A DNA stretch of 64,000 nt, from contig NW_027138451.1 in the NCBI RefSeq assembly GCF_035084215.1, positions 1,488,001 through 1,552,000 of the forward strand, in the 5' to 3' direction. The notes beneath the pieces were generated by a model. The model did not search any database. It was not told where the DNA came from and saw nothing but the letters and a program-made list of their open reading frames with translations. Shown piece after piece: positions 3,235 through 49,611 of this stretch. This DNA is from Heptranchias perlo (Eukaryota). Each line of letters starts with the position of its first letter. Positions within the stretch are counted from its first letter, which is position 1. A program made the position numbers and the translations under genes.

Positions 3235-4555
3235 TCATCACGGAGACCTGAATACCAGCTGGACACAAATGGCAGCTTAATATTCAAGTCCATAAGAAAG
3301 GACAGGGAAATAGGGAAAGGAGGAGGAGTAGAAATATTACTAAAGGGCAATATTACAGCAGTTGAAAGATAGAATATCAGTTAGGGTGAGGGAGCAGTGT
3401 AAACACTCTGAGAGACCCATGGTTCATGTCGTAGATGTGATATATTTGGATTTTCCGAAGGCCTTCGATAAGGTACCACACTTCAGACTCATGGCTTAAG
3501 TTTACAGCACGTGGAGTCAGGGGACAGGTGGCAGAATGGTTTGCAAGCTGGCAACAAAACAGAAAACTGAAAATAGAGGTTAAGGGTAGTTACTCAGACT
3601 GGCAAAAGGTGGGAAGTGGAGTTCCACAGGGATCGGTGTTGGGACCACTGTTGTTCACAAGTTACATTAACAATTCGGGACTCGAGAATCGGAAGTACAA
3701 TTTCTAAGTTTGTGGACGACACCAAATTGGCGGATGTGGTTAATAAAAAGGAAGAATGCATCAAAATGCAAGAGGATATTAATAAACTTGCAGAATGAAG
3801 AATAAGGAGGTCACATACTGCTTGAATAGTAAGAGTCTAATCGGGATAGAAGAGCAAAGGGATCTAGTGGTACAGATATACAAATTACTGAAAGTAGCGA
3901 CGCAGCTTGATAAGGTCACAAAATGGCAAGTCAAACACTAGGATTCATTTCCAGATTGATAGAATTGAAAAGCAATAAAGTTATGTTGAACTTGTATGGG
4001 ACCTTGGTTAGACCATACTTGGAGTGTTGTGCACAGTTCTGGTCTGCAATTATAGAAAGGACTTAGAAGGTGCAAAAAAGATTCTCATGATACGAGAAAT
4101 GAGAGAATATTCTTATTAGGAAATGCTGAACAGATTGGGGGTGTTTTCATTAGAATAGAGAAGGCTGAGGGGTGACCTGATAGAGGCCTTACAGTGGGGT
4201 TTCATGGGGTAGACATAGAGAAAATGTTTCCATTTGTCGGGAGTCCAAAACTAAAGGTAATAATGATAAAATTTTCGCTAATAAATCCAATAGGGAATTC
4301 GGGAAAAACTGCTTTACCCAGAAAGTGGTTAGAATGTGGAAAACGTTACCGCAAGGAGTAGTTCAGACAAATAGCACAGGTGCAATTGAGGGGAAGCTAG
4401 AGAAACACATGAGGAAGAAAGGAATCGAAGGGTATTCTGATCGGGTTAGATGAAGTAGGGAAGGAGGAGCCTCGTGTGGAGCATAAATGCCGGAACAGAC
4501 CAGTTGGGCCGAATGGCCTCTTTCTGTGCCGTAGTTTCGATGTAACTCGATGTAA
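3235..4555 (+). mobile_element. Degenerate CR1 LINE (endonuclease remnant, RT, 3'UTR)
   Basis: Remnants RKDRE.GKGGGV, VDVIYLDF.KAFDKVPH, SGVPQGSVLGPLLF, ISKFVDDTKL. Ends GGGCCGAATGGCCTCTTTCTGTGCCGTA plus a TCGATGTAA repeat tail. Multiple stops and frameshifts. Confidence 0.9.
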
Positions 4556-4600
4556 AGGCTCTTTTCAGAGCCACCCAGTGTATCTCTGAAAGGGCTGGTT
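4554..4600 (+). terminator. Orphan H2A-type histone 3' stem-loop and HDE
   Basis: AAAGGCTCTTTTCAGAGCCACCCA...GAAAGGGCTGGTTACTGTCTGAA is nearly identical to the H2A 3' end at 15899-15955. No histone CDS lies upstream; the CR1 tail abuts it. Confidence 0.85.
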
Positions 4601-5059
4601 ACTGTCTGAAGGGAGACGCTGATATCATGCTACCAGTGTTGCTTTGAGCTGCTTTTTTCTCGTTGCAGGCGAGATGAGGTATTAATGGGACTGGAGTCGG
4701 GGCACCGACCACATTCCGGTACTTTAAACGGTAAGTTATGGCCCCCAGTCCACACATCACCAGATTTCTTGTATTATTTAAACTACTTGCCATGCTGGGC
4801 TCGTAAAACATCACCAGAACTGCTCGACTAACCTTTCTATATCTGCGGGATTCAGCGCTTCGCTCCGTTTCTGCTCTATTTTGTTAGATTATTTACATAA
4901 CGCATCAAACTCATAGGGGAATCAGTGAAATGTAACTCTGTACAGAAACAAATAACAGTGAACGGCCTGGTGCCCAGGAGATCAGAAGCATTACTCGCCT
5001 TTCGTCCTGTTAACAAGCAAACCGTGTTTACAGTCCACCGACCCGCTTCGGTTCCATAT

Positions 5060-5620
5060 GGGGGATTAAACAGAGAAAGCGGGAGGGGAGGAGACAGAGT
5101 GACAGACAGGACAGATGGCAGACTCTAATCTTCCAGCTCCACCTCCAGTTATCCCCGACCGCCGATTTCTAACGATAATTGAACCGAAACACAACGCTCC
5201 GCACAAACCCTTACAGACTCGGGCTTCATATTCAAAGATTCCCAGAAACCCGGAGCTTTCAAATAAGCCCCGTTACAATGAAAAGTCAGTACCATTCCTG
5301 CCTAAACACAGTCCATTCAAGAACAGTCAACTCGGCTCCTCCATTTCAGTCTGCCCCCCTGTTCTATCTCCCCACGCATCCCCTCCCAGACTGGTTCAGC
5401 AGTTTACAAATACCTTACAAATATTTGGAGAATCTCATGTGTTGGGGTTTTAGTTATGACGCCGAGTTTCTCCGCGAGTGTTACGCTCTCACAGAGACTC
5501 TCACCCTGAATCTGTGAAAAAATTATCACCATGAACTGGGACTGGATCCGAACACATCCCCAGTTACAATGAGGCCTGGCCCCGACATCTCATTCTCTCT
5601 GTTTTATATCAGACAGTATC
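5060..5620. repeat. Diverged relic of the H4-H1 intergenic spacer
   Basis: Aligns to 19680-20215 (CTTCCAGCTCCACCTCCAG, GCTCCGCACAAACCCTTACAGACTC, TTCCCAGAAACCCGGAGCTTT). Carries only about one 33-mer-like unit. Confidence 0.8.
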
Positions 5621-6526
5621 CCACCTTCATATCCGTACCAGAGAGAGAGAGACTGTCAGTCTTACTCTTCAGATCAGTGTGTTCATATCACGCTCAATAG
5701 CAGTATCCAACCTTCATATACTGCACCAGAGGGAGAGAGAGGGCGACCGACACGGTGAGAGAGCGCGGAGAGACACAGTGTCACAATATCAATTGCAGAC
5801 TGACCTGTAAAGTTCCGTTTTTTTTCCAGAAAGATCTCATTGGAGAGACAGAAGGTGCAATCTAATCTCTCACTGATATTGTACCAGAGGCAGACACATT
5901 ATTAATCCCACACTCAGGGACAGTGCAGAGCGCGACAAAAACAATGGGCCACATTGAATCCTCTGTTGCCTGTTGTACTATATTCGGTTTTGCAGCTCAA
6001 GGTCGTTCGGTACTAAACTAAATAAGCGCGCGTTTCACTCTGATCATATTAATCTGGGACTGTTGCTGTCAGATATTAAACCGACACGGTCCCAGAAAAC
6101 ACACGGACTCCGACTTTCCTCCAATGTTTCTGTAGGATTGGTTTTGAGAAATCCTCCCTTCAGTTTCTTCCTCAAGCGTCAGTTTTATCAGTAAAGGAGC
6201 CAAGAATGAACAGAACCCATTGGCTCATTCCACAGCCGCCTTCTTTATCTCTGAAAGACTACTTACCATTAAAAGATCCCGAGAGAAACAGCAGGGATGG
6301 AAACATCTAGTTTCATAGTTGGAGATTGGAAAGTCAGTCTGGATTCCAGCGTGAGGCACTGGTGGAATCCCATCTGTTCCCCATTCTGGTGCCTGTTCCT
6401 GCACTGCCTGTGGACCCCATTCCCTCTGACCTTTCCCCCAGACCCACTTCCTTTGCTCAGACTCGGAAAAATTCCAATTGGGGAAAGTTTACATCGATTT
6501 CAGGATTGGGAATTAAACCAGATATC

Positions 6527-6650
6527 TGCGCATGCGTGACTCAGCCCCGCCCCCAGCGCTGGTTGGTGGTGAGCAGAAGAGCGCATGCGCGCTGCCCTCC
6601 CCCAGCTCGGCCTGTGGGCGCCATTCCCTCAGTGAGCGGAAGAAGATGGT
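6527..6650 (+). promoter_or_regulatory. GC-rich housekeeping-type promoter, non-histone (copy 1)
   Basis: Two NRF1-type GCGCATGCG motifs (6527, 6581), TGACTCA (6537), GC box (6544), YY1-like GCGCCATT and AAGATGG, ETS-like GCGGAAG. Strand is inferred from the downstream exon. Confidence 0.6.
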
Positions 6651-7480
6651 TTAAAACAGGCGGGAATGGAGAGATCACGGCCCCCGGGGGAAGGGAGCAA
6701 AGAGCAGCCTCGTTACAGCAGCTCATCGCTCCGGGACCGTGTCCGCAGATGGGCTCAGAGATCGGCATTGAGTCCGGGGGAAGGGCAGGGGGAGTCCGGG
6801 GGATGTTTGTAAGAGGCGGAGTGGATCAGGAACTGGTCCCGGAACATGGAGTGAGAGGGGGGGCGGAAGGGAGAGGTCATTCTCGGGCTGTGTGTGGACA
6901 GGGTGTGTCCAGGGGAAGGGAGAGAGAATGGGAAGAAGCTGCTATTAAAATCATTGCTGCTTTCTCTCCCCAAACCAGGAGTGAATGGTCCTGGTTTAGT
7001 TCCAGTCTCCCCCTGTTTATTGTTATTGGACAGTGAAGAGTGGAAACAGAGCCGGAGAGTAAGGATGTGGGGAGTTATACAAAGAGCATCTATTGCAGGC
7101 ACCAGGTGAGAAGTGTGAAGGAGACATTTTAAACAGCGGCTGTTTGCTTTAAGTTGAACGGTTAGTCCCGTGGGAGAGGGGATTAGAAACCTGACCTGCA
7201 CAAAGGTCCCTGCCCCATCGGCTAGTCCCATTCATGGATCAGTGCAGGGGTTGGGTTGTGTCTGGATATCACTCAATTGTTTTAAATTCGCGCAAAACAC
7301 CTGGTATCAGAAGCTGAGTGCTGCAGTACTGCAGTGGAGTCAGACACTGACTCTGTTTGTATCACTGGTTTTCATTTGTGGGTATTCAAAATAATTATTG
7401 ACAGGGATATTAAACTGATCACTTTTGTATTTTCTACCTCACCTGTTCTTGAGTTACAAGAGATACGTTTCTTTCTACAG

Positions 7481-7702
7481 GCAAACCCTTGAAGGATCCA
7501 GAATGAATGTGAAGTTTCCTCCACCCGAGGCAAAGGAAGAGTGCAGCCAGCTCCTCACACACAGTCGGTATATTATCACTCACAGAGCACAGAGACACAG
7601 ACAGGTCATCAGGTCCACAGTCTCAGACAGCAGAGGTAGTCAGTCCCACACTGATCCCAGGTTCCAGAGACACATTTTCAATCCAACAGTCAAACAGAGC
7701 AG
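7481..7702 (+). other. Putative 222-nt internal exon of unknown transcript (copy 1)
   Basis: Acceptor TTTCTTTCTACAG|G and donor CAG|GTGAGG. Length divisible by 3 with one open frame. Confidence 0.45.
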
Positions 7703-7939
7703 GTGAGGCAGACGCTGTTTCCATTTCCCCCGAACTCAGTCCCGCTGACAGGAAGATCCAAAAATCCCAGTCCAAAGCTTTCAGATTGTCAATTTCACAA
7801 AAGGGCAACATTATCCGTGAATTAAATACCAGATACCCCGAGATTACAATTGAATACTGGCCCAGAACTCTCACACACACGTGAGTTTAATACATGGAGT
7901 ATCCATTCGAATAGCGGATCATGAGATACAAATTGCAAG

Positions 7940-10900
7940 TCCAAAACTCATGGACAGTATCAGATTGAGAAATGCTGTGACAGTGTAACCTGAGGAACAA
8001 ATTAGATACCAGTTTATAATATGCTCATTGTGTGAGATTTAAAGACGCAGTATCAATTTCTTTAGTACAGACTGATCTACACATTATGTACCAATTCAAA
8101 AATATCACCATATCAGTGTGAAAGATACATTATCATTCACAATATTACTCACAGACATATAGATTTAATAGTTGTCCAAAAAGCACACAAATCATCAAAG
8201 CATCAAATACTTAAGTGTATCCATATTCACCAATTAAATAATGAGAAAAACTATTTAAACATTAAGGTATTAAAGCTACAGTATTGAACACAATAGTGTA
8301 ATCTGAGAGAATAAATATCTACAGATACACAATGAATCTTACACTCACATAACGTACCAAAGACTGACAGAAGCAGAAGGAATCCCAAACTCACATACAG
8401 TACCAGAGACTGACAGATACAGAATGAATCCCACACTCACACACAGTACCAGAGACTGACAGATACAGAATGAATCCCACACTCACACACAGTACCAGAG
8501 ATTGACAGATACAGAATGAATCCCACACTCACACACAGTACCAGAGACTGACAGATACAGAATGAATCCCACACTCACACACAGTACCAGAGACTGAGGG
8601 ATACAGAATGAATCCCACACTCACACACAATACCAGAGGCTGACAGATACAGAATGAATCCCACACTCACACACAGTACCAGAGACTGACAGATACAGAA
8701 TGAATCCCACACTCACACACAGTACCAGAGACTGAGAGATACAAAGTGAATCTCACAATCACCTCCATTAGTGCAAGCTGAGTTACAACTTACGTACCAG
8801 AGCAAAAATCTCACAGTTGCAGATTGAAAGATACCATTTCAATTCCATTAATGCAGGCTTAGTTACACATTAGGTACCAGGCCAAAAATCTCAGTGTCAG
8901 AATGAACGATACAGTATCAATTCCATTAGTGCAGGCTGAGCTACGCATTATGAACAACTACAAAAAAACTGATACAGATTCAGACTGAAATATACAGTGT
9001 TTTATTCATGCAGACTGAGCTCCACATTATATACAAGTTCAAAAATGTCACCATATCAGTTTGGAAGATGCACAAATTCACAATTGTGTTCCCATCGATA
9101 TGGATTTAATGGAAGTCCAAAAATAGATGCCCACATTATCTGATTATATCCAATGGCATTACATTTTAAAATGTATCATTATCTACCAATTAATGACCGG
9201 GAAAAAATATTCATACATTAAGGCATTAAAGATACAGTTTTGAATGCCCTGCTGTAAACCGAGATACAAATTAGATAAAGATAAAGAATGAATCTCACAC
9301 TTCGATGGACTGCCAGAGACTGACATATAGAATGAATCCAAAACACATACAATGTACCAGTGACTGACAGATTCAAAATTAATCCCACACTCACACACTG
9401 TAGCACAGACTGTCAGATACAGAATTTATATCACTCACATACAGCATCAGAAATTGATAGATACAGAATGAACGTCTCACCAACACACAATACCTGAGAC
9501 TGACAGATACAGAATGAAGCCCACACCCACACACAATATCAGGGACTGACAGATACAGAATGAATCTCACGCTCACACACAGTACTACAGACTGACAGAT
9601 AAAGTATGAATACCACATACACGCAGTACCAGAAACTGACAGATACAGAATGAATCCCACACTCACACACATTTCCAGAGACAGACAGATACAGAATGAA
9701 TCCCACACTCACAGACAGTACCAGAGACTGAAAGATACAGAATGAATCCCACACTCACACACAGTACCAGAGACTGACAGATACAGAATGAATCCCACAC
9801 TCAAAAACAGTACCAGAGACTGACAGATACAGAATGAATCCCACACTCAAAAACAGTACCAGAGACTGACAGATACAGAATGAATCCCACACACAGTACC
9901 AGAGACTACGAGATACAGAATGAATCCCAAACTCACACACAGTACCAGAGACTGAAAGATACAGAATGAATCCCACACTCACACACAGTACCAGAGACTG
10001 AAAGATACAGAATGAATCCCACACTCACATACAGTACCGGAAACTGACAGATACAGAATGAATCTCACAGTCCCATTACTGCAGACTGAGTTACACTTTA
10101 CATACCAGTCCAAAGATCTCATTGTGTCAGATTGAAAAATACACAATATAGTCCATTCGAGCAGACTGAGCTACATATTAGATATATTGGTAAATACTCA
10201 GAGTATGATACTGAAATAAACAGTATCAATACCAATGGTACAGACTGAGCTACACATTACACACTGTTCCAAAAACCTCATAAATGATCAGACTGGAAGA
10301 TACAGTTTCAATTCTATTTGCACCGCCTGAGCTGTACATTACATACCAGACTGAAAATACGATCAAATGTTAGACTGAAAGGTACAGGATCGATTCCATG
10401 AGTGCAGACTGAGCCACACATAATATCGGGCAGTCCAACAATCTCATACCGTATCAGATTCAAAGATACAAAATCAAATCCATTAGCACAGACTGACCTA
10501 TATGTTGCTCACCAGTCCGAAAATCTCATACAGTATCAGATTGAAAGATTCAGTATCACTTCCACTATTGAAGACTGAACTACACATTACATTCCAGTCC
10601 AGAAATCTCTTACAGTATCAGACTGATAGATACAGTATCAATTCCTTTAGTGCAGGACAGGCTACATATTACATACCAGTCCAAACATCTCATACAGTGT
10701 CAGACTCAGATCGAGAATTCATCCCATTATTGCAGACTGAACTATACATTACATACCAGTCCAGTAATTTCACCGTGAACAGATTGAAAGGTACATTATC
10801 ATTCACAATAGAGTTCAGGGATTAAGATGTAACACACATTGTTTGATGAAAGAAAATCGAAAAGTTTATCCATATTAACAATTTTAATAATCGACAAAGA

Positions 10901-12990
10901 ACTGTATATATTTAAAAGTATTAAAGATACAGTTTCAAATAAGATACTTTCAACTGAAATAAGAATATGAAATGAATTCAGACTTGCACATTGTCTCAGA
11001 GACTGAATTACACAATGAATCCCTCACTGAGATAAAGTAGCAGATAATGGCAGATATAGAACGAATCCCACACTCACATATAGTACCAGAGACTGACAGA
11101 TACAGAATGAATCTCGCACTCACAAACAGTACCAGAGACTGACAGATACACATTGAATCCATCACTTACATATAGTACCCCTGAGACTGACAGATGCAGA
11201 ATATACCCCATGCTCACAGACATTACCAGAGACTGACAGATACAGAATTAATCCCACACTCACATATAGCACCAGAGACTGACAGATACAGAATGAATCT
11301 TACAGTTACATTACTGCAGACTGAGCTACACATTAAATACCAGTCCAAAAATCTCATTGGGTCACATTGAAAGATACAGCACCAATTCCATTGGTGCAGA
11401 CTGAGCGACATATTCTATATATATAAATACTTATGTTATACTGAGATAAATATTATCAATACCATTGGTACAGACTGAGATACACATTACATACGAGTCC
11501 AAAATCAAATAAATGATCAGACTGGAAGATATAGTTTAAATTCTATTAGCACCGCCTGAGCTAAACAGTATATAACACTCCAACAATCTCACACAATATT
11601 AGACTGAAAGATACAGTACCAATTCCAGTAGCACAGACTGAGCTATATGTTACTCACCAGTCCAAAAATCTCATACAGTATTGGACTCAGATACAGAATT
11701 AATCCCATTATTTCAGACTGAACGACACATTACAGACCAGTCCAGTAATTTCACCATCAACAGATTGAAAGTTACATTATCACACGCATGGATTAAAGAA
11801 AATCGAAAAGTGCATCCATATAAATAAATTAAATACTCCAAGAAGAACTGTATATATTTTGAAGTGGTAAAGATACAGTTTCAAATACGATACTGTGAAC
11901 TGAAATAAGAATATGGAATGAATCCAGACTTGCACATTGTCTCAGAGACTGAATTACAGACTGAATCACACACTGCGATAAAGTAGCAGAGAATGGCAGA
12001 TACAGAATGTATCCCCCACATACACAGACAGCACCAGAGACTGACAGATACAGAATGAATACATCACTTATATATAGCGCCAGAGACTGACAGATACAGA
12101 ATTAATCCCACACTCACATAAAGCACCAGAGACTGAGAGATACAGAATGAATCCATCACTTATATCTAGTACCTGAGACTGACAGATGCAGAATGTATCT
12201 CATGCTCACACTCATTACCAGAGACTGACAGATACAGAATGAATCCCAAACTCACGCACAGCACCAGAGACAGACAGATACAGAATAAACCCCACTCTCA
12301 TATACAGTACCAGAGACTGACAGATACAGATATATTTTGAAGTGGTAAAGATACAGTTTCAAATACGATACTGTGAACTGAAATAAGAATATAGAATGAA
12401 TCCAGACTTGCACATTGTCTCAGAGACTGAATTACAGAATGAATCCCACACTGAGATAAAGTAGCAGAGAATGGCAGATACAGAATGTATCCCCCACATA
12501 CACAGTCCCTCTCATATACAGTGCCAGAGATAGACAGATATAGAATAAACCCCACTCTCATTTACAGTGCCAGAGATAGACAGATACAGAATAAACCCCA
12601 CTCTCATATACAGTGCCAGAGATAGACAGATACAGAATAAACCCCACTCTCATATACAGTGCCAGAGATAGACAGATACAGAATAAACCCCACTCTCATA
12701 TACAGTGACAGAGATAGACAGATACAGAATAAACCCCACTCTCATATACAGTGACAGAGACTGACAGATACAGAATAAACCCCACTCTCATATACAGTAC
12801 CAGAGATAGATACAGAATAAACCCACTCTCATATACAGTACCAGAGATAGACAGATGCAGAATAAACCCCACTCTCATATAGAGTACCAGAGATAGACAG
12901 ATACAGAATAAACCCCACTCTCATATACAGTGCCAGAGATAGACAGATACAGAATAAAGCCCACTCTCATATACAGTACCAGAGACTGAC
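7940..12990. repeat. Composite satellite block: 44-bp repeats (two subtypes) interleaved with degenerate ~80-bp repeats
   Basis: Subtype A is CAGTACCAGAGACTGACAGATACAGAATGAATCCCACACTCACACA-like. Subtype B is CAGTGCCAGAGATAGACAGATACAGAATAAACCCCACTCTCATATA-like (12510-12990). The longer unit contains CAGACTGAGCTACACATTACATACCAGTCCAAAAATCTC. Confidence 0.9.
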
Positions 12991-13689
12991 CTCTACTGGA
13001 CGTAAGCGAGAACTGTAAAAGAGTGGAACAAATTCACATGATCTGTCATGGTGACAGAAACAGGACAATGTGCAATGTGAGGAAAGGTTTCTGTCTGTAA
13101 TTTTCACTCTCGTATTTTTGCACTTTTTAATAGAGAAAAATGAAGATAATTGATTAATAATAAAGTTTTAGCTTCACTCATTCAATAGTTGTCAATTTGC
13201 TCGATCATATTTCACTGTACATTGCGCAGTATTTCTCTCTGATTTCTCAGGACACGATTTACATTGTTCCTCTGCCCATTTAGACTGTTATTTTCCAAGC
13301 AGTATGTGGCCTCCTTATTCCCCCTAACGAAATGCAGCATCGCAAACCTTTCTATATTGAGATTCAATGGCCATTTAAACAGCCTTCTGCAAGTTTATTT
13401 TGCCGCAGTCTTCCTCAGTATTGACTATACCCCAAAATCAATTACAAGAATTTTACACAGCATTACAACTAATGTTTGGTCTAACAAAATGTACTTGCAG
13501 CTCGTCTCCATTCCCAGTTTTTCTCAATCCCACCCGTGCAATATAATGTGAAGAATTAGTTTCTGTTCTGTCCCTCTCTCATCTTCAAACTTCAATGTCC
13601 CGGGGTTTGGGGAGATCTACTGGCCGGAAGCAGAACTGCAACAGTTCGGAACAAATTGCTGAAAGCGGACAGTGTGCGGTGTGAGCGTG

Positions 13690-13850
13690 TTTGTGATTGG
13701 TGGCAGATACTGAATCTGATTGGATATCTAAAGAAACCAATCAGAGAGTTACAGTTAATAATTATTGTGACCTCACTCCCAATGACCCAATCACAATCAT
13801 TGCCCTCCCCATCCTTCATTACCATAGGTCTGTGGGACTGCCTATTTAAT
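13690..13850 (+). promoter_or_regulatory. H2B promoter: five CCAAT/ATTGG boxes and TATTTAA
   Basis: ATTGG at ~13696 and ~13719, CCAAT at 13737, 13779 and 13787, TATTTAA at 13842. No ATTTGCAT octamer seen. Confidence 0.7.
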
Positions 13851-13901
13851 CCGAGCTCGGAGCGGATTGGGTCATTTCTGGGTCTGAAATTGAGTTTGGA
13901 A

Positions 13902-14276
13902 ATGCCTGAGGACAAGAAAGCAGCTCCCAAGAAGGGCGCCAAGAAAACCTTGAGTAAAGCACCAGGCAAAGGCGGCAAGAAGCGGAGAAAGTCGAGGAAG
14001 GAGAGTTACGGCATCTACATCTACAAAGTGATGAAGCAGGTTCACCCGGACACCGGCATCTCCTCCAAGGCCATGGGCATCATGAACTCCTTTGTGAGCG
14101 ATATTTTCGAGCGCATCGCGGGTGAGGCTTCCCGCCTGGCCCATTACAACAAGCGGGCGACCATCAGCTCCCGGGAGATCCAGACCGCCGTGCGCCTGCT
14201 GCTGCCCGGGGAACTGGCCAAGCACGCCGTGTCGGAAGGGACAAAGGCGGTGACCAAATACACCAGCTCCAAGTAA
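13902..14276 (+). CDS. H2B: Histone H2B (124 aa)
   Basis: [12 protein letters not shown]...[14 protein letters not shown]...AVTKYTSSK. Stem-loop GGCTCTTTTAAGAGCC at 14308-14323. The true start is the ATG at 13902, not the longer ORF. Confidence 0.98.
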
Positions 14277-15421: not shown

Positions 15422-15871
<450 letters not shown>

Positions 15872-18577: not shown

Positions 18578-18679
18578 TCACTGATATCGCTGTTGAATGA
18601 AAAGCGAACTTGTGCTGGTTCCGTTTTTATGCAGCCTGCCCCGACCTGACTGAAACATGTACAGAGTGAAAGAGGGAGG

Positions 18680-19700
18680 GGAGGAGACAGAGTGGGATAT
18701 TAAACAGAGAGGGGAGGAGACAGAGTGAGATATTAAACAGAGAGGGGAGGAGACAGAATGGGATATTAAACAGAGAGGGGAGGAGAGAGAGTGAGATATT
18801 AAACAGAGAGGGGAGGAGAGAGAGTGAGATATTAAACAGAGAGGGGAGGAGAGAGAGTGAGATATTAAACAGAGAGGGGAGGAGAGAGAGTGAGATATTA
18901 AACAGAGAGGGGAGGAGACAGAGTGGGATATTAAACAGAGAGGGGAGGAGACAGAGTGAGATATTAAACAGAGAGGGGAGGAGACAGAGTGAGACATTAA
19001 ACAGAGAGGGGAGAAGACAGAGTGAGATATTAAACAGAGAGGGGAGGAGACAGAGTGAGATATTAAACAGAGAGGGGAGGAGAGAGAGTGAGATATTAAA
19101 CAGAGAGGGGAGGAGACAGAGTGAGACATTAAACAGAGAGGGGAGGAGACAGAATGAGATATTAAACAGAGAGGGGAGGAGAGAGAGTGAGATATTAAAC
19201 AGGGAGGGGAGGAGACAGAGTGAGATATTAAACAGGGAGGGGAGGAGACAGAGTGAGATATTAAACAGAGAGGGGAGGAGAGAGAGTGAGATATTAAACA
19301 GAGAGGGGAGGAGAGAGAGTGAGATATTAAACAGGGAGGGGAGGAGACAGAGTGAGATATTAAACAGAGAGGGGAGGAGACAGAATGAGATATTAAACAG
19401 AGAGGGGAGGAGACAGAGTGAGACATTAAACAGAGAGGGGAGGAGACAGAGTGAGATATTAAACAGAGAGGGGAGGAGAGAGAGTGAGATATTAAACAGA
19501 GAGGGGAGGAGACAGAGTGAGACATTAAACAGAGAGGGGAGGAGACAGAGTGAGATATTAAACAGAGAGGGGAGGAGACAGAGTGAGATATTAAACAGAG
19601 AGGGGAGGAGACAGAGTGAGACATTAAACAGAGAGGGGAGGAGACAGAGTGAGATATTAAACAGAGAGGGGAGGAGACAGAGTGAGATATTAAACGGAGG
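18680..19700. repeat. 33-bp purine-rich minisatellite upstream of H4, ~31 copies
   Basis: AGAGTGAGATATTAAACAGAGAGGGGAGGAGAC. TAAAC recurs from 18701 to 19691 at 33-bp period. Confidence 0.95.
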
Positions 19701-20391
19701 GGCGGAGAGAGTCAGAGTGACGGACAGTGCGGTCTCTGATCTTCCAGCTCCACCTCCAGCTTTCTCCAACGGCCAATTTCAAACCGTTTATCGATAACTG
19801 AACCGAAACACAGCGCTCCGCACAAACCCTTACAGACTCCGCCTTCATATTTAAGAATTCCCAGAAACCCGGAGCTTTTAAATAAGCCCCGTTACAATTA
19901 ACAGTCAGTAATATTCCTGCCTGAACGAGTCAACCCGCCTCCTTCCATTTCAGTCCCAGACCCGATTCTATTCCCCCACACATCCCCTCCCAGACGGGTT
20001 CAGCAGTTCATAAACACATTATTCCAGCTGATTGGAGAATCTCATGTGTTGCGGTTTGAATTGTGATTGCGACGGATCTCCGTCAGTTTTACTCTGTCAC
20101 GGATTCTCGCCCTGAATCTGTGAGAAAAAAATGAACTGGGAGAGAAGGTGAACACGCCCCAGTTCCAGTGAGGCCCGGCCCGGATATCCCATTCTCCCTA
20201 TTTTATATCAGACAGTGGGAGTGGGGCGGGTGTAGCGAATGTCAGCGAGTCACCAGGACCCTGGGATTATTGTAAATGATTTCTATCTGAAACCTGAGCC
20301 CGGCCCCGGGACAGGAATCATCTGATTCCGGGATCAGCTCTTTTCGAAGAGACGTGGGTGGCTCTGAGAAGAGCCGTTGGGTTCAGATTTT

Positions 20392-21015: not shown

Positions 21016-23181
21016 GTCCTGGACGCTGGAGAAAATCTCTGACAGTCAGAGCTGGGTCAGAAATGAAACGAGAGGCGGCGGCACAGAGCGGACGGGGCGG
21101 AGACACCCTGCTGTCAGCTCCCGGCCCCTCCAGCCTCTCTGTGTTTCTCTCTCCTCTTAAACTCCCCGATTCTAATTAAAATCGGGCACTCCAGAGTCCC
21201 AGACTAGCCCCTTCCCATCTCTAACACCGGAATGTTTGCTGTCCAAAAACTTTCACCGTAATTAAAAGCACCAGTTTCGATTTAAACCCGTTTCATTGCT
21301 GCACTGATCGCGCTCTCTCACATGATCGCTGACATGATCTCTGTTTTTCGGCTGAAATCTTGAATTGAACTAAAACCGTACCTTAAATTTTCACTTCGGG
21401 TCTCGGCAGGGGAGGAGGGCGATCCTTTGACAGGGATTTTTAAAAATTTTACTCAAAAGGGACTCGGACATCCGGCGATGAGGCCGGACACACAAACACA
21501 GTGACATTAATCTAACCCGCCCGCCCCTTTAACACACAGACTCTGACACAATGTTCACATCTGTCCATTCACAGGACAAACTGTTCACCAGATTGACAAT
21601 TCCCGGGACAGGCTTTCTTCCCCGCTCGGCCTGAGCTGCGGATTCTCGGGGGTTAGTTGTAGTTTCCCAGTTGAGTAACTGTGAAACACTCTGAGGCCGG
21701 CGCTCCTCACAGTCTCTGGTCCCCAGATTCAGGAGCAGGAGCCAATCACAGCTGTGACTGTGATCATCCATGTCTGGCTTTACATAATTATATTGTTCGC
21801 ACACAGAAATATGTTTGGTTAAGTTGAAAATTCAAATTATCCGCTCTGGGCTCCTCCAGTCTCTCTGTGTTTCCTTCTCCTGCGAAACTGACTGACAGAC
21901 AATCGTAACTGGTGTCCTATCCATCCCATTCTCCACACCCAGAGACGGCGAGTTACTGAATAAATTCAACACTCACAGACAGTCCGGAGTCAGACAGTTA
22001 CAGGCTGTTACCCTCCACCTATCCTTACAGGACTGGAGACGGATAAATGCACCGTCAGACCGGCTCATATATAATAGAAGGGACAGTAATCGTCTCACCA
22101 ACAGCACACAGACACAGAATCACTCTTTCACTTTCTATCAGTGTGTCTATATTACGCTCAGTAACAGTATCCCGAATTCATGTGCAGAACTGGAGAGAGA
22201 GAGAGACGGACCGGCAGATAAACGGACAGACAGAGAGACAGTCAGACAGACACAGTATCAGTCTCACACTTCCCATCAGTGTGTCCGTTTCACGCTCAGT
22301 AAACATTATCCCACCTTCATGTACAGCGCTTGAGAGACAGAGATACAGACAGACACAGTATCAGTCTCACACTTCCCATCAGTGTATCTGTATCATGCTC
22401 AATAACAGTATCCCAACTCCATATACAGTAGATGAGGGACAGAAAAACTGACCTGTTGTGAGCGGTTTTCACCCAGTAATAAATAGGGAACTATTCCATT
22501 CCAACTGCTATTCCAAGGTGCAGTGACAGAAGATACAGTCTCATCTCTAACTGATCATATTCCAGAGACAGACACATTATTAATCCCACTCTCAGGGACT
22601 GTGTCACATATTTAACGCTCTCTTGCACGTTGTACCCTCTGTAATCTTGCAGCAGAGGGCCGTTCAGTATTAATCTCAGTGACCGAGAGTTTCACTCCAA
22701 TTGAAATAAACTGGGACTGTTGCTGTCAGATATTCATCCTGCACAGTCCCAGCAAATACACCGACTCCCACTTTCCTCCCATGTTTCTCCAGGATTGGTT
22801 TGAGAAATCCTCCCTCCAGTTTCGGGATCAGGCGTTACTTTATCAGTAAAGGAGCCAAGAATGAACAGAACCCATTGGCACATTCCACAGCCGCCCACTT
22901 TATCTCTGAAAGACTCTTTCCCATCAAAAGATCCCGAGAGAAACAGCAGGGATGGAAACATCTAGTTTCAGAGTTGGAGATTGGAAAGTCAGTCTGGATT
23001 CCAGCGTTAGGCACTGGTGGAATCCCATCTGTTCCCCATTCTGCTGCCTGTTCCTGCACTGCCTGTGGACCCCATTCCCTCTGACCTTTCCCCCAGACCC
23101 ACTTCCTTTGCTCAGACTCGGAAAAATTCCAATTGGGGAAAGTTTCCATCGATTTCAGGATTGGGAATTAAACCAGATATC

Positions 23182-23305
23182 TGCGCATGCGTGACTCAGC
23201 CCCGCCCCCAGCACTGGTTGATGGGGAGCAGAAGAGCGCATGCGCGCTGCCCTCCCCCAGCCCGGCCTGTGGGCGCCATTCCCTCAGTGAGCGGAAGAAG
23301 ATGGT
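23182..23305 (+). promoter_or_regulatory. GC-rich non-histone promoter (copy 2)
   Basis: Same NRF1/AP-1/GC/ETS/YY1-like motifs as 6527-6650. Confidence 0.6.
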
Positions 23306-24136
23306 TTAAAACAGGCGGGAATGGAGAGATCACGGCCCCCGGGGGAAGGGAGCAAAGAGCAGCCTCGTTACAGCAGCTCATCGCTCCGGGACCGTGTCCG
23401 CAGATGGGCTCAGAGATCGGCATTGAGTCCGGGGGAAGGGCAGGGGGAGTCCGGGGGATGTTTGTAAGAGGCGGAGTGGATCAGGAACTGGTCCCGGAAC
23501 ATGGAGTGAGAGGGGGGGCGGAAGGGAGAGGTCATTCTCGGGCTGTGTGTGGACAGGGTGTGTCCAGGGGAAGGGAGAGAGAATGGGAAGAAGCTGCTAT
23601 TAAAATCATTGCTGCTTTCTCTCCCCAAACCAGGAGTGAATGGTCCTGGTTTAGTTCCAGTCTCCCCCTGTTTATTGTTATTGGACAGTGAAGAGTGGAA
23701 ACAGAACCGGACAGTAAGGATGTGGGGAGTTATACAAAGAGCATCTATTGCAGGCATCAGGCGAGAAGTGTGAAGGAGACATTTTAAACAGCGGCTGTTT
23801 GCTTTCAGTTGAACGGTTAGTCCCATGGGAGAGGGGATTAGAAACCTGACCTGTACAAAGGTCCCTGCCCCATCAGGTAGTCCCATTCATGGATCAGTGC
23901 AGGGGTTGGGTTGTGTCTGGATATCACTAAATTGTTTTAAAATCGCGCAAAACACCTGGTATTCAGAAGCTGAGTGCTGCAGTACTGCAGTGGAGTCAGA
24001 CACTGACTCTGTTTGTATCACTGGTTTTCATTTGTGGGTATTCAAGATAATTATTGACAGAGATATTAAACTGATCACTTTTGTATTTTCTACCTCACCT
24101 GTTCTTGAGTTACAAGAGATACGTTTCTTTCTACAG

Positions 24137-24361
24137 GCAAACCCTTGAAGGATCCAGAATGAATGTGAAGTTTCCTCCACCCGAGGCAAAGGAAGAGTGC
24201 AGCCAGCTCCTTCTCCCACACAGTAGGTATATTATCACTCACAGAGCACAGAGACACAGACAGGTCATCAGGTCCACAGTCTCAGACAGAAGAGGTAGTC
24301 AGTCCCACACTGATCCCAGGTTCCAGAGACACATTTTCAATCCAACAGTCAAACAGAGCAG
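24137..24361 (+). other. Putative 225-nt exon (copy 2)
   Basis: Same splice signals as copy 1 with a +3 nt in-frame indel. Confidence 0.45.
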
Positions 24362-24614
24362 GTGAGGCAGACGCTGTTTCCATTTCCCCCGAAATCAGTC
24401 CCGCTGACAGGAAGATCCAAAAATCCCAATCCAAAGTCACACTTTCAGATTGTCAATTTCACAAAAGGGCAACATTATCCGTGAATTAAATACCAGATAC
24501 CCCGAGATTACAATTAAATACTGGCCCAGAACTCTCACACACACGTGAGTTTAATACATGCAGTATCCATTCGAATAGCGGATCATGAGATACAAATTGC
24601 AAGTCCAAAACTCA

Positions 24615-27600
24615 TGGACAGTATCAGATTGAGAAATGCTGTGACAGTGTAACCTGAGAAACAAATTAGATACCAGTTTATACTCATAGTGTGAGATTTA
24701 AAGATACAGTATCAATTCTATTAGCACAGACTGAGATACACATTCCACAGGAGTCCAAAAATCTAATAAAATAAAATTTAAAGTTTTAGTATCAATTCCT
24801 TTTGTGCAGACTGATCTTCACATTATGTACCAATTCAAAAATATCACCATATCAGTGTGAAAGATATATTATCATTCACAATATTACTCACAGACATATA
24901 GTCTGGTTGTCCAAAAAGCACACAAATCATCAAAGCATCAAATACTTAAGTGTATCCATATTCACCAATTAAATAATGAGAAAAACTATTTAAACATTAA
25001 GGTATTAAAGCTAAAGTATTGAACACGATAGTGTAATCTGAGAGAATAAATATCTACAGATACACAATGAATCTTACACTCACATAACGTACCAAAGACT
25101 GACAGAAGCAGAAGGAATCCCAAACTCACATACAGTACCAGAGACTGACAGATACAGAATGAATCCCACACTCACACACAGTACCAGAGACTGACAGATA
25201 CAGAATGAATCCCACACTCACACACAGTACCAGAGACTGACAGATACAGAATGAATCCCACACTCACACACAGTACCAGAGACTGAGGGATACAGAATGA
25301 ATCCCACACTCACACACAATACCAGAGGCTGACAGATACAGAATGAATCCCGCACTCACACACAGTACCAGAGACTGACAAATACAGAATGAATCCCACA
25401 CTCACACACAGTACCAGAGACTGAGAGATACAAAGTGAATCTCACAATCACCTCCATTAGTGCAGGCTGAGTTACAACTTACGTACCAGAGCAAAAATCT
25501 CACAGTTGCAGATTGAAAGATACCATTTCAATTCCATTAATGCAGGCTTAGTTACACATTAGGTACCAGGCCAAAAATCTCAGTGTCAGAATGAACGATA
25601 CAGTATCAATTCCATTAGTGCAGGCTGAGCTCCGCATTATGAACAACTACAAAAAAACTGATACAGATTCAGACTGAAATATACAGTGTTTTATTCATGC
25701 AGACTGAGCTCCACATTATATACAAGTTCAAAAATGTCACCATATCAGTTTGGAAGATGCACAAATTCACAATTGTGTTCCCATCGATATGGATTTAATG
25801 GAAGTCCAAAAATAGATGCCCACATTATCTGATTATATCCAATGGCATTACATTTTAAAATGTATCATTATCTACCAATTAATGACCGGGAAAAAATATT
25901 CATACATTAAGGCATTAAAGATACAGTTTTGAATGCCCTGCTGTAAACCGAGATACAAATTAGATAAAGATAAAGAATGAATCTCACACTTCGATGGACT
26001 GCCAGAGACTGACATATAGAATGAATCCAAAACACATACAATGTACCAGTGACTGACAGATTCAAAATTAATCCCACACTCACACACTGTAGCACAGACT
26101 GTCAGATACAGAATTTATATCACTCACATACAGCATCAGAAATTGATAGATACAGAATGAACGTCTCACCAACACACAATACCTGAGACTGACAGATACA
26201 GAATGAAGCCCACACCCACACACAATATCAGGGACTGACAGATACAGAATGAATCTCACGCTCACACACAGTACTACAGACTGACAGATAAAGCATGAAT
26301 ACCACATACACGCAGTACCAGAAACTGACAGATACAGAATGAATCCCACACTCACACACATTTCCAGAGACAGACAGATACAGAATGAATCCCACACTCA
26401 CAGACAGTACCAGAGACTGAAAGATACAGAATGAATCCCACACTCACACACAGTACCAGAGACTGACAGATACAGAATGAATCCCAAACTCAAAAACAGT
26501 ACCAGAGACTGACAGATACAGAATGAATCCCACACTCAAAAACAGTACCAGAGACTGACAGATACAGAATGAATCCCACACACAGTACCAGAGACTACGA
26601 GATACAGAATGAATCCCAAACTCACACACAGTACCAGAGACTGAAAGATACAGAATGAATCCCACACTCACACACAGTACCAGAGACTGAAAGATACAGA
26701 ATGAATCCCACACTCACATACAGTACCGGAAACTGACAGATACAGAATGAATCTCACAGTCCCATTACTGCAGACTGAGTTACACTTTACATACCAGTCC
26801 AAAGATCTCTTTGTGTCAGATTGAAAAATACACGATATAGTCCATTCGAGCAGACTGAGCTACATATTAGATATATTGGTAAATACTCAGAGTATGATAC
26901 TGAAATAAACAGTATCAATACCAATGGTACAGACTGAGCTACACATTACACACTGTTCCAAAAACCTCATAAATGATCAGACTGGAAGATACAGTTTCAA
27001 TTCTATTTGCACCGCCTGAGCTGTACATTACATACCAGACTGAAAATACGATCAAATGTTAGACTGAAAGGTACAGGATCGATTCCATGAGTGCAGACTG
27101 AGCCACACATAATATCGGGCAGTCCAACAATCTCATACCGTATCAGATTCAAAGATACAAAATCAAATCCATTAGCACAGACTGACCTATATGTTGCTCA
27201 CCAGTCCGAAAATCTCATACAGTATCAGATTGAAAGATTCAGTATCACTTCCACCATTGAAGACTGAGCTACACATTACATTCCAGTCCAAAAATCTCTT
27301 ACATTATCAGACTGATAGATACAGTATCAATTCCTTTAGTGCAGGACAGGCTACATATTACATACCAGTCCAAACATCTCATACAGTGTTAGACTCAGAT
27401 CGAGAATTCATCCCATTATTGCAGACTGAACTATACATTACATACCAGTGCAGTAATTTCACCGTGAACAGATTGAAAGGTACATTATCATTCACAATAG
27501 AGTTCAGGGATTAAGATGTAACACACATTGTTTGATGAAAGAAAATCGAAAAGTTTATCCATATTAACAATTTTAATAATCGACAAAGAACTGCATATAT

Positions 27601-29390
27601 TTAAAAGTATTAAAGATACAGTTTCAAATAAGATACTTTCAACTGAAATAAGAATATGAAATGAATTCAGACTTGCACATTGTCTCAGAGACTGAATTAC
27701 ACAATGAATCCCTCACTGAGATAAAGTAGCAGATAATGGCAGATATAGAATGAATCCCACACTCACATATAGTACCAGAGACTGACAGATACAGAATGAA
27801 CCTCGCACTCACAAACAGTACCAGAGACTGACAGATATACATTGAATCCATCACTTACATATAGTACCCCTGAGACTGACAGATGCAGAATATACCCCAT
27901 GCTCACAGACATTACCAGAGACTGACAGATACAGAATTAATCCCACACTCACATATAGCACCAGAGACTGACAGATACAGAATGAATCTTACAGTTACAT
28001 TACTGCAGACTGAGCTACACATTAAATACCAGTCCAAAAATCTCATAGGGTCACATTGAAAGATACAGCACCAATTCCATTGGTGCAGACTGAGCGACAT
28101 ATTCTATATATATAAATACTTATGTTATACTGAGATAAATATTATCAATACCATTGGTACAGACTGAGATACACATTACATACGAGTCCAAAATCAAATA
28201 AATGATCAGACTGGAAGATAGAGTTTAAATTCTATTAGCACCGCCTGAGCTAAACAGTATATAACACTCCAACAATCTCACACAATATTAGACTGAAAGA
28301 TACAGTACCAATTCCAGTAGCACAGACTGAGCTATATGTTACTCACCAGTCCAAAAATCTCATACAGTATTAGACTCAGATACAGAATTAATGCCATTAT
28401 TTCAGACTGAACGACACATTACATACCAGTCCAGTAATTTCACCATCAACAGATTGAAAGTTACATTATCACACACATGGATTAAAGAAAATCGAAAAGT
28501 GCATCCATATAAATAAATTAAATACTCCAGGAAGAACTGTATATATTTTGAAGTGGTAAAGATACAGTTTCAAATACGATACTGTGAACTGAAATAAGAA
28601 TATAGAATGAATCCAGACTTGCACATTGTCTCAGAGACTGAATTACAGAATGAATCCCACACTGAGATAAAGTAGCAGAGAATGGCAGATACAGAATGTA
28701 TCCCCCACATACACAGTCCCTCTCATATACAGTGCCAGAGATAGACAGATACAGAATAAACCCCACTCTCATTTACAGTGCCAGAGATAGACAGATACAG
28801 AATAAACCCCACTCTCATATACAGTGCCAGAGATAGACAGATACAGAATAAACCCCACTCTCATATACAGTGCCAGAGATAGACAGATACAGAATAAACC
28901 CCACTCTCATATACAGTGACAGAGATAGACAGATACAGAATAAACCCCACTCTCATATACAGTGACAGAGACTGACAGATACAGAATAAACCCCACTCTC
29001 ATATACAGTGACAGAGATAGACAGATACAGAATAAACCCACTCTCATATACAGTACCAGAGATAGACAGATACAGAATAAACCCCACTCTCATATAGAGT
29101 ACCAGAGATAGACAGATACAGAATAAACCCCACTCTCATATACAGTGCCAGAGATAGACAGATACAGAATAAACCCCACTCTCATATACAGTGCCAGAGA
29201 TAGACAGATACAGAATAAACCCCACTCTCATATACAGTGCCAGAGATAGACAGATACAGAATAAACCCCACTCTCATATACAGTACCAGAGACAGACAGA
29301 TACAGAATAAACCCCACTCTCATATACAGTACCAGAGACAGACAGATACAGAATAAACCCCACTCTCATATACAGTACCAGAGACTGACC
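24615..29390. repeat. Composite 44-bp/~80-bp satellite block (unit 2)
   Basis: Near-identical to 7940-12990 with different 44-mer copy numbers. Confidence 0.9.
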
Positions 29391-30282: not shown

Positions 30283-30657
30283 ATGCCGGAGGACAAGAAA
30301 GCAGCTCCCAAGAAGGGCGCCAAGAAAACCTTGAGTAAAGCACCAGGCAAAGGCGGCAAGAAGCGGAGAAAGTCGAGGAAGGAGAGTTACGGCATCTACA
30401 TCTACAAAGTGATGAAGCAGGTTCACCCGGACACCGGCATCTCCTCCAAGGCCATGGGCATCATGAACTCCTTTGTGAGCGATATTTTCGAGCGCATCGC
30501 GGGTGAAGCTTCCCGCCTGGCCCATTACAACAAGCGGGCGACCATCAGCTCCCGGGAGATCCAGACCGCCGTGCGCCTGCTGCTGCCCGGGGAACTGGCC
30601 AAGCACGCCGTGTCAGAAGGGACAAAGGCGGTGACCAAATACACCAGCTGCAAGTAA
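30283..30657 (+). CDS. H2B: Histone H2B (C-terminus YTSCK)
   Basis: Intact ORF. Stem-loop at 30693-30708. Confidence 0.98.
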
Positions 30658-33213: not shown

Positions 33214-34045
<832 letters not shown>

Positions 34046-34789: not shown

Positions 34790-35110
<321 letters not shown>

Positions 35111-35212
35111 TCACTGAAATCGCTGTTGAATGAACAGCGAACTTGTGCTGGTTCTGTTTTTATGCAGCCTGACCCGACCTGAGTGAAACATGTACAGAGT
35201 GAAAGAGGGAGG

Positions 35213-35803
35213 GGAGGAGACAGAATGGGATATTAAACAGAGAGGGGAGGAGACAGAGTGAGATATTAAACAGAGAGGGGAGGAGAGAGAGTGAGATATT
35301 AAACAGAGAGGGGAGGAGAGAGAGTGAGATATTAAACAGAGAGGGGAGGAGACAGAATGGGATATTAAACAGAGAGGGGAGGAGACAGAGTGAGATATTA
35401 AACAGAGAGGGGAGGAGAGAGAGTGAGATATTAAACAGAGAGTGGAGGAGACAGAGTGAGATATTAAACAGAGAGTGGAGGAGACAGAGTGAGATATTAA
35501 ACAGAGAGGGGAGGAGACAGAGTGAGATATTAAACAGAGAGGGGAGGAGAGAGAGTGAGATATTAAACAGAGAGGGGAGGAGAGAGAGTGAGATATTAAA
35601 CAGAGAGGGGAGGAGACAGAGTGAGACATTAAACAGAGAGGGAAGGAGACAGAGTGAGATATTAAACAGAGAGGGGAGGAGACAGAGTGAGACATTAAAC
35701 AGAGAGGGGAGGAGACAGAGTGAGATATTAAACAGAGAGGGGAGGAGAGAGAGTGAGACATTAAACAGAGAGGGGAGGAGACAGAGTGAGACATTAAACG
35801 GAG
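35213..35803. repeat. 33-bp minisatellite upstream of H4, ~18 copies
   Basis: TAAAC from 35234 to 35795 at 33-bp period. Confidence 0.95.
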
Positions 35804-36330
35804 GGGCGGAGAGAGTCAGAGTGACGGACAGTGCGGTCTCTGATCTTCCAGCTCCACCTCCAGCTTTCTCCAACCGCCAATTTCAAACCGTTTATCGATA
35901 ACTGAACCGAAACACAGCGCTCCGCACAAACCCTTACAGACTCCGCCTTCATATTTAAGAATTCCCAGAAACCCGGAGCTTTTAAATAAGCCCCGTTACA
36001 ATTAACAGTCAGTAATATTCCTGCCTGAATACAGTCCCTTCTATAACTAGTCAACCCGCCTCCTTCCATTTCAGTCCCAGACCCGATTCTATTCCCCCAC
36101 ACATCCCCTCCCAGACCGGTTCAGCAGTTCATAAACACATTATTCCAGCTGATTTGGAGAATCTCATGTGTTGCGGTTTGAATTGTGATAGCGACGGATC
36201 TCCGTCAGTTTTACTCTGTCACGGATTCTCGCCCTGAATCTGTGAGAAAAAAATGAACTGGGAGAGAAGGTGAACACGCCCCAGTTACAGTGAGGCCCGG
36301 CCCGGATATCCCATTCTCCCTATTTTATAT

Positions 36331-39432: not shown

Positions 39433-39556
39433 TGCGCATGCGTGACTCAGCCCCGCCCCCAGCGCTGGTTGGTGGTGAGCAGAAGAGCGCATGCGCGCTG
39501 CCCTCCCCCAGCCCGGCCTGTGGGCGCCATTCCCTCAGTGAGCGGAAGAAGATGGT
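39433..39556 (+). promoter_or_regulatory. GC-rich non-histone promoter (copy 3)
   Basis: Same motif set as copy 1. Confidence 0.6.
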
Positions 39557-40387
39557 TTAAAACAGGCGGGAATGGAGAGATCACGGCCCCCGGGGGAAGG
39601 GAGCAAAGAGCAGCCTCGTTACAGCAGCTCATCGCTCCGGGACCGTGTCCGCAGATGGGCTCAGAGATCGGCATTGAGTCCGGGGGAAGGGCAGGGGGAG
39701 TCCGGGGGCTGTTTGTAAGAGGCGGAGTGGATCAGGAACTGGTCCCGGAACATGGAGTGAGAGGGGGGGCGGAAGGGAGAGGTCATTCTCGGGCTGTGTG
39801 TGGACAGGGTGTGTCCAGGGGAAGGGAGAGAGAATGGGAAGAAGCTGCTATTAAAATCATTGCTGCTTTCTCTCCCCAAACCAGGAGTGAATGGTCCTGG
39901 TTTAGTTCCAGTCTCCCCCTGTTTATTGTTATTGGACAGTGAAGAGTGGAAACAGAGCCGGACAGTCAGGATGTGGGGAGTTATACAAAGAGCATCTATT
40001 GCAGGCACCAGGTGAGAAGTGTGAAGGAGACATTTTAAACAGCGGCTGTTTGCTTTCAGTTGAACGGTTAGTCCCCTGGGAGAGGGGATTAGAAACCTGA
40101 CCTGCACAAAGGTCCCTGCCCCATCGGGTAGTCCCATTCATGGATCAGTGCAGGGGTTGGGTTGTGTCTGGATATCACTAAATTGTTTTAAAATCGCGCA
40201 AAACACCTGGTATTCAGAAGCTGAGTGCTGCAGTACTGCAGTGGAGTCAGACACTGACTCTGTTTGTATCACTGGTTTTCATTTGTGGGTATTCAAGATA
40301 ATTATTGACAGAGATATTAAACTGATCACTTTTGTATTTTCTACCTCACCTGTTCTTGAGTTACAAGAGATACGTTTCTTTCTACAG

Positions 40388-40609
40388 GCAAACCCTTGAA
40401 GGATCCAGAATGAATGTGAAGTTTCCTCCACCCGAGGCAAAGGAAGAGTGCAGCCAGCTCCTCACACACAGTAGGTATATTATCACTCACAGAGCACAGA
40501 GACACAGACAGGTCATCAGGTCCACAGTCTCAGACAGAAGAGGTAGTCAGTCCCACACTGATCCCAGGTTCCAGAGACACATTTTCAATCCAACAGTCAA
40601 ACAGAGCAG
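40388..40609 (+). other. Putative 222-nt exon (copy 3)
   Basis: CTACAG|G ... CAG|GTGAGG. Confidence 0.45.
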
Positions 40610-40859
40610 GTGAGGCAGACGCTGTTTCCATTTCCCCCGAAATCAGTCCCGCTGACAGGAAGATCCAAAAATCCCAGTCCAAAGTCACACTTTCAGATTG
40701 TCAATTTCACAAAAGGGCAACATTATCCGTGAATTAAATACCAGATACCCCGAGATTACAATTGAATACTGGCCCAGAACTCTCACACACACGTGAGTTT
40801 AATACATGCAGTATCCATTCGAATAGCGGATCATGAGATACAAATTGCAAGTCCAAAAC

Positions 40860-49474: not shown

Positions 49475-49611
49475 TTTCAAACTCAATTTCTGACCCAGAA
49501 ATGATCCAAATCCGTTCCGAGCTCGGATGAAATAGGCAGTCCCACAACCCTATTCTAATGAGGGATGGGGGAAGGCAATGATTGTGATTGGACGGATGGG
49601 AGTGATGCCAC

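Follow-up and report, generated by a model that had tools for sequence, protein, structure and literature searches.

The window, by which we mean the whole 64,000-nucleotide stretch of shark DNA that was analyzed, contains replication-dependent histone genes arrayed in tandem, with a unit of ∼16.4 kb. Each unit reads module, satellite block, H2B+, H2A+, H3−, H4−, H1− (Table 1), the H2B-to-H2B spacings are 16,381 and 16,365 bases, and the right end of the window is filled by an inverted set. The array has the marks of a replication-dependent histone quintet: five genes, tandem units, and 3′ stem-loops, 12 of which score above the Rfam cut-off in the window. Coding sequences differ between units by 0.3–1.5%, and ∼7 kb of each 16.4-kb unit consists of module and satellite. 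Over 127–129 residues, H2A is 96.9–98.4% identical to four Heptranchias perlo entries, compared with 89–95% for eight mammals, 95% for a bony fish, and 97% for a pair of short bird fragments among the 14 rows compared. In unit 2, H2B (30283–30657) has a terminal SCK in place of SSK, and H4 (34790–35101) has one residue changed; two H2B copies carry ESYG and the third ESYS.

Table 1. Window coordinates of the module copies, the parts of module copy 1, and the first histone unit
Feature	Position	Strand	Basis or remark
Module copy 1	5841–8085	+	segment 7481–7702
Putative TATA-less promoter	6470–6650	+	motifs; contig cover rises just downstream (hint only)
First exon, start approximate	6595–6850	+	relatives' junctions end the exon at 6778, 6783, 6850, 6913, 6930
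Optional 72-nt exon	7034–7105	+	joints 23433–23695, 23757–24134; loose ends 23437, 23762, 24134
Common splice acceptor	7461–7481	+	AG ends at 7480; junctions from six upstream positions
Second exon, predicted	7481–7702	+	5′ boundary backed by junctions, 3′ boundary without such backing
Satellite block, 46-bp and 82-bp arrays	7982–12990	+	repeats; downstream of module copy 1
H2B, unit 1	13902–14276	+	stem-loop after gene
H2A, unit 1	15482–15871	+	stem-loop after gene
H3, unit 1	17303–16893	−	stem-loop after gene
H4, unit 1	18568–18257	−	stem-loop after gene
H1, unit 1	21015–20392	−	stem-loop after gene
Module copy 2	22519–24744	+	acceptor 24137, proposed donor 24361; reference for contig alignment
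Module copy 3	38770–40992	+	segment 40388–40609
Module copy 4, inverted	55490–53262	−	segment 53875–53651

Other repeats and relics accompany the genes. A 33-bp array of 17–32 copies lies between H4 and H1 (18669–19720, 35202–35824, and 57895–58451), and a 51-bp array with a CCAAT box in each monomer lies upstream of H3 in unit 2 (33709–34041) and in the inverted set (59612–60035), with none reported in unit 1. The remains of a decayed unit precede module copy 1 at 4557–5617; they include an H2A-type stem-loop at 4557, upstream of which there is no histone frame, and a 76–79% copy of the H4–H1 spacer at 5082–5617. Two retrotransposon-like fragments (3400–4500 and 49610–50180) are what we take to be CR1/LINE; 3585–3695 gives a weak RVT_1 match (19 bits, below the cut-off), and the fragment at 49610–50180 sits between satellite block 4 and a truncated H2B. 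A borderline tRNA match at 356–436 (29.9 bits against a cut-off of 29, with no ARAGORN call) is probably a tRNA relic; in the available text of bioRxiv 10.1101/2025.06.08.657570, tRNA loci adjoin a stingray histone cluster.

A sequence-only reading of this DNA had proposed that an unexplained non-histone transcription unit, seen in four copies, is coamplified inside every histone repeat. The four copies were borne out: their cores are 97–99% alike, and one copy heads each of the four units. The wider claim holds for 4/4 unit heads in the window, with the reservation that copy 4 heads a broken unit, its downstream H2B being cut to an 81-nt fragment (49474–49394). The stretch 49394–49560, where the direct and inverted arrays meet, comprises the H2B promoter and the first 81 nt (90% identity). 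In copy 1, 5841–6250 has diverged by 19–21% from the other copies, and from 6251 on pairwise divergence is 0–4%; this drop suggests, on sequence grounds, a recombination or conversion breakpoint near 6250.

The putative promoter carries CCAAT boxes at 6474, 6481, and 6509, the NRF1-type motif GCGCATGCG at 6528 and 6581, TGACTCA at 6537, a GC box at 6545, and CGGAAG/AAGATGG at 6636–6649; the factors that we presume to go with these motifs are NF-Y, NRF1, Sp1, ETS, and YY1. All of the motifs that had been named are present as described, but only the doubled GCGCATGCG exceeds chance: its 2 sites per unit count as 3 strand matches where 0.014 would be expected, although the motif was chosen after the fact. 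The GC box occurs once against 0.18 expected, and there is no enrichment of TGACTCA (1 vs. 3.9 expected), AAGATGG (1 vs. 1.6), or CGGAAG (4 vs. 4.8). CpG is slightly enriched in the module (observed/expected 0.59–0.71 vs. 0.54 for the window).

Downstream of this promoter, a segment bounded by strong splice signals had been proposed as a phase-symmetric exon with an open frame. Its length (222 nt, and 225 nt in copies 2 and 4) and its flanks are as described, and one frame is fully open in 4/4 copies. Taken from the sequence alone, the case for it would be thin. Among 2,000 shuffles of the segment, 46% have one of the three frames open, and 6% have an ATG-started frame of at least 60 codons. 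The splice signals are present and good but not rare in the window: by rough matrices that we wrote ourselves from textbook frequencies, the acceptor ranks 140th of 8,771 AG and the donor 13th of 7,405 GT, and 25 acceptor–donor pairs have comparable scores, of which 4 are the segment copies. Of the 25 listed pairs, the one with the strongest acceptor (14.1; donor 10.3) spans 4669–4730, upstream of copy 1, and has no listed counterpart at the other copies. The indels that had been contrasted inside and just outside the segment have the sizes given (3 nt inside, at 7553; 1 nt and 5 nt outside, at 7306 and 7777), but the contrast is weak: 3/8 indels among copies are multiples of three, and 2 of those 3, a 3-nt and a 21-nt indel, lie outside the segment (at 6862 and 5929). 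The stretch 7560–7702 is decayed 46-bp satellite, scoring 56 against the satellite trimer, above the maximum of 34 in 444 non-satellite windows and above all 500 shuffles. A weak internal donor is predicted at 7567/7568.

Nine public runs from three studies contain 8–26% of the words of 6300–8000; all are guessed to be RNA and are stored as contigs, which show no start, end, or strand and whose depth cannot rank parts, so that depth serves only as a hint. We aligned four of the nine to copy 2 over 21100–25040, a span without H2B and the main satellite block, at 85% likeness. X1 and X2 are from one sample, X5 and X6 are from two further studies, and X6 is also from another organism; the four runs yielded 583, 600, 31, and 368 aligned contigs, and the alignment lists 15/32 joints, 24/195 loose ends, 40/513 substitutions, 12/45 indels, and 32/1,628 pieces. 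Contigs are mostly 90–99% alike to the window and spacer contigs 88–96%, and they therefore come from relatives or from other subfamilies.

At the predicted acceptor (7480/7481; 24137 in copy 2), the listed joints and loose ends converge. Six donor positions are joined to 7481 (6778, 6783, 6850, 6913, 6930, and 7105, mapped to copy 1) in two of the three studies; X5 has cover and no junction among those listed. Splicing at canonical sites is seen for the family in relatives, as the joint 23505–24137 (donor 6850) is bounded exactly by GT..AG in both X1 and X2 and the junction 7105–7481 occurs in X1, X2, and X6. The spliced junctions support the position and direction of the promoter, in runs guessed to be RNA. 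They also define an optional exon of 72 nt that the earlier reading had missed: the first exon is joined to it in X1 and X2, and both of its junctions (first exon to 72-nt exon and 7105–7481) appear as loose ends in X6. In the window, GT follows 6850 in 4/4 copies, and the donor after 7105 is GT in copies 1 and 3 and GC in copies 2 and 4. All four copies read GG, not GT, after 6778, 6783, 6913, and 6930, so the junctions at these donors come from other copies or species, and copies spliced there would be expected to have GT. The window copies can still be spliced, because GT is kept at 6850 (4/4) and 7105 (2/4). Summed depth, as a hint, rises between the places mapping to 6594 and 6702; in X1, X2, and X6, though not in X5, it climbs again at the acceptor, by 90- to 950-fold. 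Both rises accord with the promoter of the sequence-only reading. It falls 12- to 90-fold between 24195 and 24319, likewise a hint, and because of this fall an early exit from the second exon is possible; most family members may leave the module sequence inside that exon.

The downstream donor fared differently. No junction at 7702/7703 is found among the 15/32 joints and 24/195 loose ends listed, and contigs cross the site: an X6 contig (24265–24404) passes it unspliced by 43 letters, and an X2 contig (24354–24637) continues downstream of it. Across this donor, X1 and X6 show level depth and X2 a sevenfold drop, again a hint. Among the listed joints and loose ends of this span, none splices to H2B, from one unit to another, or back between the segment's own ends; a single X2 contig has a joint from 24222 to 24137, going back 86, which might represent either a small circle or a tandem duplicate. 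Another X2 contig, 1,286 nt long and unbranched, covers 21834–23117 (the H1-promoter spacer) at ∼88%, so the spacer between H1 and the module exists in a relative. This contig reaches neither H1 nor the promoter motifs and could be a divergent transcript toward H1 or DNA. Bins 21496–21759 are without cover in any aligned run, which proves nothing, and no contig over 21100–25040, a span without H2B, links the module to a histone gene. Overall, it is very likely that the module family is transcribed and spliced, the evidence being relatives' contigs and not the four window copies.

We then considered what the transcripts might encode. The open frame of the segment had been offered as a hint of a protein, and this hint found no support: there are no relatives, the 3′ half is satellite, the changes look neutral, and some contigs carry frameshifts. 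Frame 2 of the segment had 0/10 candidates among longer proteins and 0 among 1.84 billion representatives, frame 3 had 0/33 candidates and the first-exon frame 0/27 in the protein search, the Atlas search gave at best 0.76 with low recognition, 0/7 module frames matched Pfam, and exact look-up found none of four module frames in the protein collection. These blanks are weak evidence, because 2/3 H1 copies and all queried H2B forms are also absent from the collection, which includes shark RefSeq proteins; the word-index search covered longer proteins, not those of similar length. Of the codon changes among the copies, 4 are synonymous and 6 are not (P = 0.16 at a neutral share of 0.22, low power). 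Contigs of X1, X2, and X6 have one-base insertions at 24187–24195, each making up 6–20% of the depth there and possibly no more than alignment noise, and in one X1 contig ATA replaces the segment's ATG. The form that the window copies can make joins 6850 to 7481; in it, three or four short frames terminate ahead of any that runs open across the second exon. The donors do not share one phase, 6783 and 6930 being off by two from 6778, 6850, and 6913; the 72-nt exon and the three same-phase donors weaken this as evidence against coding.

Structural RNAs were also considered. Neither Rfam at gathering score nor ARAGORN called a small RNA in the module, and an Rfam E-value scan of 5800–13900 gave only two weak matches (16 and 21 bits vs. 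cut-offs of 210 and 50). As a host gene for a snoRNA, miRNA, or snRNA the unit was rejected, there being no known small RNA in the intron by Rfam; as a 5S or rDNA cistron it was rejected as well, with no rRNA family at gathering score in the window. DNA pattern scans of metagenome, viral, and prokaryote genome contigs were blank, as expected for shark DNA.

Between the module and H2B, AATAAA occurs 16 times in sense and once in antisense within 7703–13200, first at 8310. The four blocks have 16, 20, 23, and 8 sense copies versus 1, 1, 1, and 0 antisense, a strand bias that is partly explained by the A-rich sense strand. The last 46-bp sub-array before H2B (12509–12985, 28720–29384, and 44928–45731) is the most homogeneous (94–97%) and has AATAAA in nearly every monomer.

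The reading that we prefer, and to which we give an even chance, is a non-coding, spliced Pol II unit in the spacer of the histone repeat that reads into the satellite and is amplified with the repeat. Taken together with the captured gene head that is discussed next, a real promoter with non-coding spliced exons is quite probable. The preferred reading is backed by the junctions that converge on 7481, donors that sit in two phases, contigs that cross 7702 unspliced, an exon whose 3′ half is decayed satellite, the blank protein searches, the H1-side spacer of a relative, and the sense-strand AATAAA. Counting against it are the GG at 4/6 donors, the fall in depth within the second exon, X5 without a listed junction, the lack of a contig over the aligned span that links module and histone gene, the frame opened by the ATG at 6666 that is taken up below, and the source of the contigs, which are from guessed-RNA runs of organisms ∼5–12% diverged in the spacers and tie no transcript to the window copies. 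Mechanistically, a TATA-less promoter of the housekeeping type would fire outside S-phase control. The transcript would enter old satellite sequence and continue into the satellite block in the direction of H2B, with H1 behind it, until it was cut at one of the sense-strand AATAAA of the block, ahead of the H2B promoter. Donors could be gained and lost by single G/T changes, as no frame would be kept. Any effect would most likely be on chromatin, in that each repeat would have a constitutive open site and a satellite-containing RNA, which is conjecture. A stronger form, in which the module is a sixth conserved gene of each shark histone repeat whose constitutive spliced Pol II RNA through the satellite spacer is maintained by selection for opening or organizing the locus, seems to us rather doubtful.

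Much of this evidence would also suit a module that belongs to a large dispersed gene family, as its promoter and 5′ untranslated exons. One copy would have lost its coding exon, been taken into the histone spacer, and since been carried by concerted evolution. The RNA would then come mostly from intact genes elsewhere, with C2H2 zinc-finger genes presumably the first suspect. The hundreds of variant contigs, the main donors that read GG in the window, and the depth that falls soon past the acceptor agree with such an origin, as do two contigs of 735–736 nt that match only 176–177 nt of the intron 3′ end at ∼86%, with the rest not among the matches listed. However, no downstream coding exon was seen, the share of aligned contigs that continue beyond the match in sequence unlike the window is only 0–0.1, no junction from the leader to a zinc-finger exon is among those listed, no zinc-finger gene is apparent by eye among the window's long ORFs, and a relative has the H1-side spacer adjoining the module. 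According to the available text of PMC11979771, histone and zinc-finger clusters are both on catshark chromosome 13. As for the variant contigs, histone units can number dozens or hundreds in the available text of PMC13525598 and could supply the variants themselves. We regard capture from a dispersed family as possible but not probable.

A shark-specific small protein of at least 111–135 residues is a further candidate. The ATG at 6666 starts a frame of 111 codons when the 6778 donor is joined to the second exon and of 135 when the optional 72-nt exon is included, both forms being open in 4/4 copies. Among 3,000 shuffles, the two-exon form was matched in 12% and both forms together in 2%, a share that falls below 2% if the 72-nt length is counted; the first exon (6595–6778) is nearly invariant (1/184 variable columns vs. 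63/1,436, P = 0.0075), and the 3-nt indel preserves the frame. Yet the adjoining intron is equally invariant (2/262), which points to gene conversion, the donor that the protein requires reads GG in all four window copies, and the frame was picked post hoc from several junction forms. With the codon changes, one-base insertions, lost ATG, and blank protein searches described above, such a protein is unlikely. We consider it very unlikely that the module is an alternative H2B promoter, whose leader would splice over the satellite block to give a replication-independent, polyadenylated H2B message. Module and H2B do lie on the same strand, with a strong donor at 7702 and acceptor-like sites at 13251 (12.4) and 13828 (8.8; 74 nt before the H2B ATG), but no junction listed over the aligned span, which is without H2B, leaves 7702, many sense AATAAA intervene, searches with either exon frame found no extended H2B, and the module persists in copy 4 despite its truncated H2B. 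Finally, inert spacer, in which motifs and splice signals were chance and the contigs DNA, would agree with splice signals and an open frame that are unexceptional by sequence and with runs whose RNA type is a guess. It is hardly credible and for the family largely refuted: joints from six positions onto one AG, one of them with exact GT..AG ends, in two studies are unlike DNA deletions, and the doubled GCGCATGCG is above chance.

We found no paper on the module in listings of the open-licence literature, and its transcripts may already be annotated as uncharacterized lncRNAs. The main text of a 2026 review (PMC13525598), whose Table S1 could list sharks, contains neither "shark" nor "cartilaginous"; in its available text, only rRNA genes are described as passengers in histone repeats, and the regulation of mixed histone arrays is called a major mystery. 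If the preferred reading of a non-coding spliced Pol II unit is true, the unit is a vertebrate case of an all-cycle promoter beside S-phase genes and lets one ask whether satellite RNA helps to organize the histone locus. The sixth-gene form, if true, would make it the Pol II equivalent of the rRNA genes that lie within the histone arrays of some invertebrates. Even if the module is no more than the captured head of a gene, it accounts for a family of shark transcripts that is unannotated and apparently abundant, and it indicates how histone arrays sweep up neighbors.

Among known systems, the 5′ ends of C2H2 zinc-finger genes, as we understand them, seem to resemble the module in their TATA-less, GC-rich promoter, short non-coding exons, and many diverged copies; unlike them, it is followed by no zinc-finger exon, either in the window or among the listed contigs. 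The array itself is like the tandem histone quintets in the available text of PMC13525598 in its five genes with stem-loops, tandem units, and near-identical coding sequences, whereas its 16.4-kb unit compares with the 3.7–13 kb given there. The sequence-only reading had likened the locus to newt histone loci, where transcription reads through into satellite DNA in Notophthalmus (Diaz and Gall 1985, as cited in PMC11602149). The fit is loose. Histone clusters split by transcribable satellite are shared, but read-through in newt, where it occurs in oocytes, and in Xenopus starts at histone promoters in the available text of PMC11602149. In the shark, the satellite is faced by a separate, dedicated promoter and by no intact histone gene, the upstream neighbor H1 pointing away. 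The nearest parallel for a passenger is the rRNA genes in histone arrays, given in the available text of PMC13525598 as 5S in Artemia and Mytilus, an rDNA cistron in the boll weevil, and both in Potamopyrgus. As in those arrays, the histone repeat includes a non-histone unit that is homogenized along with it, and the same question arises of an all-cycle gene beside S-phase genes. Those passengers are Pol I/Pol III structural RNAs, whereas the shark unit is spliced, has a Pol II-type promoter, and matches no Rfam family.
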